Source: a phage
Direction: 5' to 3' (one strand)
Sequence record: L00023.1
DNA: 368 bases
Each line of letters begins with the position of its first letter. Positions within the stretch are counted from its first letter, which is position 1. The notes beneath the pieces were generated by a model, which saw nothing but the letters and a program-made list of their open reading frames with translations, had not been told where the DNA came from and made no database searches. The position numbers were made by a program, and so were the translations under genes. Shown here one piece after another: positions 1-368 of this stretch.

Positions 1-82
1 TCAAACACCAGCACGGTGGGACGTGGTTCAGAAGGTGTAGCTGCCAGACAAGGTGTATTCCCGTCTGCAGGTTGGTAGCCAT
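1..82 (-). CDS. murI: Glutamate racemase MurI, N-terminal fragment (5' partial; continues beyond window start); reading frame interrupted by an apparent 1-nt indel near 62-67
   Basis: Minus-strand ATG at 82-80 gives MATNLQ. After a one-base frame jump the translation continues DGNTPCLAATPSEPRPTVLVF to the window edge, matching the N-terminus of E. coli MurI as recalled. An alternative in-frame ATG lies at 94-92 (MRQSMATN...). No strong Shine-Dalgarno is evident. The murI start overlaps the btuB 3' end by about 56 nt, as known for this locus. Confidence 0.6.
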   Translation of the reverse strand, partial: MATNLQTGIHLVWQLHLLNHVPPCWCL

Positions 83-122
83 AGACTGTCTCATAATCTT
101 TGTCGAACAGGTTGGCTATTTT
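28..122 (-). CDS. btuB: TonB-dependent vitamin B12/BF23/colicin E outer-membrane receptor BtuB, C-terminal fragment (about 31 codons), cut off upstream at the phage junction; same apparent 1-nt frameshift as murI
   Basis: Minus-strand translation from 122 downward gives KIANLFDKDYETVYGYQPA. After a one-base frame shift it gives REYTLSGSYTF and a TGA stop at 30-28. This matches the recalled BtuB C-terminus and the typical TonB-dependent receptor terminal beta-strand ending in Phe. The reading frame is broken at about 123-128 by lambda core sequence (in-frame TAG at 128-126). Confidence 0.65.
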
Positions 123-129
123 ATACTAA
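115..129. other. Hybrid att core (attL-like crossover region): GCTATTTTATACTAA, 14/15 identical to the lambda common core GCTTTTTTATACTAA; overlap region TTTATAC at 120-126
   Basis: Direct match to the recalled lambda core. The single mismatch (A at 118 where lambda has T) lies in the left core-type half-site. Sequence to the right is lambda P' arm; sequence to the left is btuB/murI, not the lambda P arm. Confidence 0.8.
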
Positions 130-133
130 GTTG
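125..133 (-). promoter_or_regulatory. Core-type Int binding site C' (bottom strand CAACTTAGT)
   Basis: Plus-strand ACTAAGTTG at 125-133 is the reverse complement of CAACTTAGT, which fits the lambda core-type consensus CAACTTNNT, at the right edge of the overlap region. Confidence 0.7.
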
Positions 134-154
134 GCATTATAAAAAAGCATTGCT

Positions 155-167
155 TATCAATTTGTTG
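155..167 (+). promoter_or_regulatory. IHF binding site H' of the lambda P' arm
   Basis: TATCAATTTGTTG matches the IHF consensus WATCAANNNNTTR and sits between core and arm-type sites, as in lambda attP/attL. Confidence 0.7.
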
Positions 168-174
168 CAACGAA

Positions 175-205
175 CAGGTCACTATCAGTCAAAATAAAAT
201 CATTA
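175..205 (+). promoter_or_regulatory. Arm-type Int binding sites P'1-P'2-P'3 (tandem, about 10-bp spacing)
   Basis: AGGTCACTAT (176-185), CAGTCAAAAT (186-195) and AAAATCATTA (196-205) resemble the arm-type consensus (C/A)AGTCACTAT. Exact site boundaries are approximate. P'3 overlaps the int stop codon. Confidence 0.75.
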
Positions 206-368
206 TTTGATTTCAATTTTGTCCCACTCCCTGCCTCTGTCATCACGATACTGTGATGCCATGGTGTCCGACTTATGCCCGAGAAGATGTTGAGCAAACT
301 TATCGCTTATCTGCTTCTCATAGAGTCTTGCAGACAAACTGCGCAACTCGTGAAAGGTAGGCGGATCC
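203..368 (-). CDS. int: Lambda integrase Int (tyrosine recombinase), C-terminal 55 codons plus stop; 5' partial, continues beyond window end
   Basis: Minus-strand translation from 367 gives DPPTFHELRSLSARLYEKQISDKFAQHLLGHKSDTMASQYRDDRGREWDKIEIK with stop TAA at 205-203. This matches the recalled lambda Int C-terminus. By the standard lambda Int numbering (356 aa), the active-site residues are His308 (352-350), Arg311 (343-341), His333 (277-275) and the nucleophile Tyr342 (250-248). Confidence 0.93.
   Translation of the reverse strand, partial: DPPTFHELRSLSARLYEKQISDKFAQHLLGHKSDTMASQYRDDRGREWDKIEIK

Follow-up and report, generated by a model that had tools for sequence, protein, structure and literature searches.

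The window, by which we mean the whole stretch analysed (368 nucleotides of the phage sequence record L00023.1), is a lambda/E. coli hybrid clone rather than chromosomal DNA. On the plus strand, positions 115–368 align to lambda J02459 27724–27977 with a single mismatch, at 118, and the 245 bases from 124 to 368 equal J02459 27733–27977 with no differences. Positions 1–123 of the same strand are the reverse complement of the 3' end of E. coli btuB and the 5' end of murI. The order of parts is int' – P' arm – hybrid core – btuB' – murI'. The 3' end of lambda int occupies 203–368 on the minus strand (...HELRSLSARLYEKQ...EWDKIEIK*, the translation ending ...HELRSLSARLYEKQISDKFAQHLLGHKSDTMASQYRDDRGREWDKIEIK*) and is cut at a BamHI site, GGATCC, at 363–368 (J02459 27972–27977). 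This site is the exact end of the window, which points to a cloned restriction fragment and away from a genome assembly. At its other end, the window starts (from TCAAACACC) within a HinfI site of the chromosome (K-12 GGAGTCAAACACC), off the cut position, a coincidence that may be due to chance. The P' arm of lambda attP, at 130–202 on the plus strand, is identical to J02459.

The bacterial segment was compared with K-12 MG1655 (NC_000913.3), taking btuB (b3966) and murI (b3967) as annotated there. Only two differences from K-12 are found in 1–123, and in each of the 5,426 complete E. coli genomes this segment matches where btuB and murI are annotated. By the RefSeq K-12 annotation, the 5' end of murI spans 1–82 on the minus strand, with its ATG at 82–80 and its frame broken after codon 6. 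The 3' remnant of btuB spans 28–123 on the same strand and begins at about codon 584, so that some 30 codons are left of the gene; its TGA stop, at 30–28 on the minus strand, is in frame only once the sequence is repaired as described below. There is also an in-frame ATG four codons upstream of the annotated murI start, at 94–92 on the minus strand (MRQSMAT...). The K-12 murI annotation starts at the second ATG, and the protein accession stands at version 2 (NP_418402.2).

Between the two parts lies a hybrid 15-bp att core, GCTATTTTATACTAA, at 115–129 on the plus strand; the lambda core is GCTTTTTTATACTAA (J02459 misc_recomb 27724–27738). Across the junction, lambda reads ...CAGCTTTTTTATACTAAGTTGG, K-12 btuB in the orientation of the window reads ...TGGCTATTTTACCACGAACTG, and the window reads ...TGGCTATTTTATACTAAGTTGG. 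A118 is the last base that is bacterial only, and T124 is the first that is lambda only. The TTTTA between them (119–123) is common to lambda and btuB, and the crossover lies inside it, at about nucleotides 1749–1753 of the 1845 of btuB, or about codon 584. By what is established on lambda att, the 7-bp overlap region of the core is TTTATAC, at 120–126 of the window. The shared TTTTA partly overlaps this region, and the crossover falls in sequence common to both partners. The bacterial core, GCTATTTTACCACGA, matches the lambda core at 9 of 15 bases, and it matches the overlap region at the first four of its seven positions only; the recombinant core carries the phage-type overlap TTTATAC. The core is flanked by btuB/murI (1–118) on one side and, on the other, by lambda DNA consisting of the P' arm and the int-proximal part; the junction has the B-O-P' anatomy of an attL, made by Int at a secondary attachment site in btuB. 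The reciprocal attR (P-O-B') lies outside the window.

Everything from the int end through the P' arm and what is left of btuB to murI runs in one direction, on the minus strand (window 80–368). Only about 95 nt of btuB remain upstream of the murI ATG, so that in the original lysogen the essential murI would have needed a promoter in the remnant or read-through from the prophage int side. Scanning the window for promoters and terminators gave no site resembling a terminator and just two promoter-like matches, both weak, and an Rfam scan of it gave no RNA family at E ≤ 1. A promoter-like match at 100–127 on the plus strand consists of TTGTCG, a 16-nt spacer and TATACT (9/12); it is created where btuB and lambda meet and is directed towards the P' arm, and it is a consensus match only.

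A source can be proposed for such a fragment. The transducing phage lambda rifd18 reportedly descends from a lambda insertion in bfe (btuB), and its BamHI fragment that carries rrnB, with murI just upstream, is presumably the one in pKK3535, sequenced in 1981. The window would fit a fragment running from the BamHI site in lambda int through attL into btuB'–murI' on lambda rifd18/pKK3535. In the literature searched, lambda rifd18 occurs only in one reference-list entry, which names it as carrying rrnB, tufB, rplKAJL and rpoBC. A search of the pKK3535 literature gave nothing on the btuB/murI junction region, and the literature search found no paper that prints the hybrid att core and none that ties murI to Brosius.

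The first of the two differences from K-12 is a missing base at 64/65. There K-12 has CC (GTCCTG on the plus strand) and the window has one C (GTCTG), the NC_000913.3 alignment setting K-12 CCGTCCTGCAGT against CCGT-CTGCAGG in the window. Positions 61–71 of the window read CCGTCTGCAGG on the plus strand, and on the minus strand the loss shortens GCAGGACGGG to GCAGACGGG. As recorded, frame 0 of the minus strand reads ...IANLFDKDYETVYGYQPA and then passes into the MurI frame as DGNTPCLAATPSEPRPTVLVF, so that the frame of the btuB remnant enters MurI at residue 7. In frame 1, MRQSMATNLQ is followed by out-of-frame sequence (TGIHLVWQLHLL...; TGIHLVW...), murI being out of register after codon 6 in a shifted frame that stays open for at least 90 codons when extended with K-12 sequence. 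The end of BtuB, REYTLSGSYTF*, stands in the third frame, frame 2. Neither btuB nor murI is thus intact through their 56-nt overlap. The effect of the frameshift on btuB is moot, since the lambda insertion had already left only its last ~30 codons.

Inserting one C after 64/65 restores both proteins, BtuB to ...YGYQPAGREYTLSGSYTF* and MurI to MATNLQDGNTPCLAATPSEPRPTVLVF (the repaired ends can also be given as BtuB ...AGREYTLSGSYTF* and MurI MATNLQDGNTPCL...). An earlier note, made from the letters of the window, had claimed that a single-base frameshift hits btuB and murI at the same position and had predicted its repair by one inserted base. The window and the K-12 alignment agree on both points, and the comparison with the reference btuB–murI sequence that it proposed as a check shows one extra C/G exactly where predicted. 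The reference string that it expected, ending ...GCAGG, is another matter: the actual sequence is CCGTCCTGCAGT, and the expectation went wrong because position 71 also differs from K-12. This second discrepancy, G71, was overlooked, and the peptides that the note quoted, YGYQPA and MATNLQ, turn out to be those of the window itself, K-12 having YGYQTA and MATKLQ.

At position 71, the window has G and K-12 has T (AAA to AAC on the minus strand), which gives K4N in MurI and T to P in BtuB. The K-12 laboratory strains MG1655, DH5alpha and MC1061 all have T at 71, and G is therefore unexpected in a K-12-derived clone. Among the genomes listed or aligned, the G71 allele is found only in ESDR8 (NZ_CM169472.1), from which the deletion is absent; ESDR8 is also the sole genome that reaches ≥99% identity with the window as query. 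Since G71 is a natural allele in ESDR8, the substitution could be real.

The deletion has no such counterpart. Each of the 5,426 complete E. coli genomes sets 124 of its own bases against 123 of the window. A second query was given the K-12 base at 71, so that any carrier of the deletion would score 100% and rank first; its best matches were 99.2% over 124 bases, with no deletion carrier among the 5,426 E. coli genomes. Sixty rows spaced evenly through the ranking, down to CFT073 at 96%, had 124 bases in every row without exception, and this sample includes MG1655, DH5alpha and MC1061, all with the extra base. A 32-mer that spans the deletion and allows for both alleles at 71 had no exact match in GTDB representative genomes or in JGI metagenome contigs. 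As for the hybrid as a whole, megablast of the window found no place covered to at least 80% in E. coli genomes, phages or PLSDB plasmids, and an exact 31-mer across the lambda/btuB junction had no match in genome, viral or metagenome contigs.

Both differences from K-12 in 1–123 abut a PstI site, CTGCAG, at 65–70, and no other six-base palindrome occurs in the bacterial segment: the missing C is immediately 5' of the site and G71 immediately 3'. The site itself is intact whether or not the C is present. The chance that two independent random positions among 123 bases would flank the site in this way is ~1e-4 per site, and with the four tetramer palindromes counted as well, the flanking probability is still below 1e-3. 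The other 366 bases of the window are free of errors against K-12 and J02459, the mismatch at 118 being the bacterial base of the hybrid core. The discrepancies are therefore tied to the PstI site, and general sloppiness is excluded; they have the form of a restriction-site artefact, abutting a site in an otherwise accurate sequence.

We consider it probable that the missing base is an artefact of sequence determination, introduced where reads were joined at PstI without an overlapping read, and such a read junction is the most likely cause of the two discrepancies. In chemical sequencing from labelled ends, and whenever a sequence is built up fragment by fragment, no base is read less reliably than the one beside the restriction end that was labelled or cloned, and it stays uncorrected unless a read crosses the site. 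The sequencing would probably date from the chemical era, with reads begun or joined at the internal PstI site. If no read ran across it, the adjacent nucleotide could have dropped out on one side (C/G), while on the other it was misread (T as G). PstI cuts CTGCA^G, so the strand running towards murI would start 5'-G-G-A-C-G-G-G, and loss of the second G would give CTGCAG-ACGGG, just as in the window. The opposite strand would start 5'-G-T-T-T-G-G, and there the second base would be the wrong one, with T given as G. A model in which the first base is unreadable predicts a loss on both sides, however, and one side shows a substitution, which makes for a less neat fit. The real DNA would most likely read CCGTCCTGCAGT, as K-12 does, with murI unbroken.

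The explanation to be weighed against a read junction is that the deletion, with or without the substitution, is a true mutation in the cloned or transduced murI, tolerated because the host has a chromosomal murI. We judge this unlikely, though credible enough to set out. The earlier note had argued that murI is essential and that a real frameshift in it is therefore implausible, an argument that carries little weight for a cloned hybrid of phage and host DNA, whose host retains a murI of its own. In a hybrid that is no chromosome, the essentiality of murI sets no constraint, and since murI is dispensable on the clone, there would be no selection against a real frameshift. The deletion may even have been selected, should murI do harm when a multicopy replicon adds to its dosage. 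Overproduced MurI reportedly disturbs growth and inhibits DNA gyrase, and such a harmful excess of MurI would favour inactivating mutations in high-copy clones. It is doubtful, and somewhat more so than a true mutation of any kind, that the deletion is real and was selected by the harm of multicopy murI, the murI of the clone being null or its product altered at the N-terminus by re-initiation. Were re-initiation to occur, in-frame GTG codons (Val24/Val26) stand just upstream of the DSGVGG motif. Spontaneous mutation, however, is not expected to place one change directly on either side of a restriction site while leaving the remaining 366 bases without any other mutation, and the deletion allele is found nowhere else, neither in the 5,426 E. 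coli genomes nor in the exact scans of GTDB and JGI. The two causes that the earlier note had offered divide along these lines. Its base-calling error stands in that an error is favoured, but the discrepancies abut PstI and are no slip in a C/G run. Its mutation tolerated on a defective phage is possible in a hybrid clone, but the flanking of PstI favours error.

It is far less probable, to the point of being negligible, that the frame change occurs naturally or is programmed, some lineage of E. coli having a BtuB–MurI fusion frame or a site of recoding. The deletion does bring BtuB into the reading frame of MurI, starting at residue 7 (...YGYQPADGNTPCL...), and a fusion is formally possible. 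The frame change is conserved, however, in 0 of the 5,426 E. coli genomes and in none of the GTDB representatives or JGI metagenomes, and there is no slippery heptamer at CTGCAGACGGG, an X XXY YYZ heptamer having been looked for in CAACCTGCAGACGGGAAT and found absent. In the window, btuB is moreover cut off by lambda. From the TAG upstream to the point of fusion, the BtuB frame has no ATG, GTG or TTG, so no fusion protein is expected from it. The genome survey effectively refutes a programmed frameshift or a natural fusion.

The deletion is thus most likely no biological feature but a read-junction error beside PstI in the old sequence of an attL clone. The underlying biology, that is, the btuB/murI overlap and the integration of lambda at a secondary site in btuB, is already established. 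For curation, this means that no murI pseudogene and no BtuB–MurI fusion should be called from the hybrid sequence. The real DNA is expected to read CCGTCCTGCAGT, and any reuse of the hybrid sequence should allow for that. If the clone DNA read CCGTCCTGCAGG, the deletion would be an artefact and the substitution real. More generally, an argument from an essential gene needs a prior check of whether the sequence is from a chromosome or a clone.

Three known systems offer a comparison. The first is the b3966/b3967 pair of E. coli K-12 (NC_000913.3 4165428–4165483), with 121 of the 123 bacterial bases of the window identical to its 124-base stretch. The window shares the 56-nt btuB–murI overlap of K-12, in which the two genes use different frames and murI starts within the end of btuB. 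Unlike the K-12 locus, it has one base lost and one substituted beside PstI, so that neither frame is intact, and it has lambda DNA in place of btuB upstream of about codon 584. To the attL junctions of lambda at secondary sites, the window is alike in having the same P' arm and int 3' end and a crossover in a short stretch shared by the two partners; the btuB site given in an NGS survey of lambda integration away from its normal site is a different one from that in the window. The third comparison is with the junction errors of Maxam–Gilbert or fragment-by-fragment sequencing. Unlike the simple pattern of such errors, one of the two discrepancies in the window is a substitution and not a loss. 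The likeness lies in their placement, for here too the bases affected are the two that adjoin a restriction site, and the rest of the sequence is perfect.
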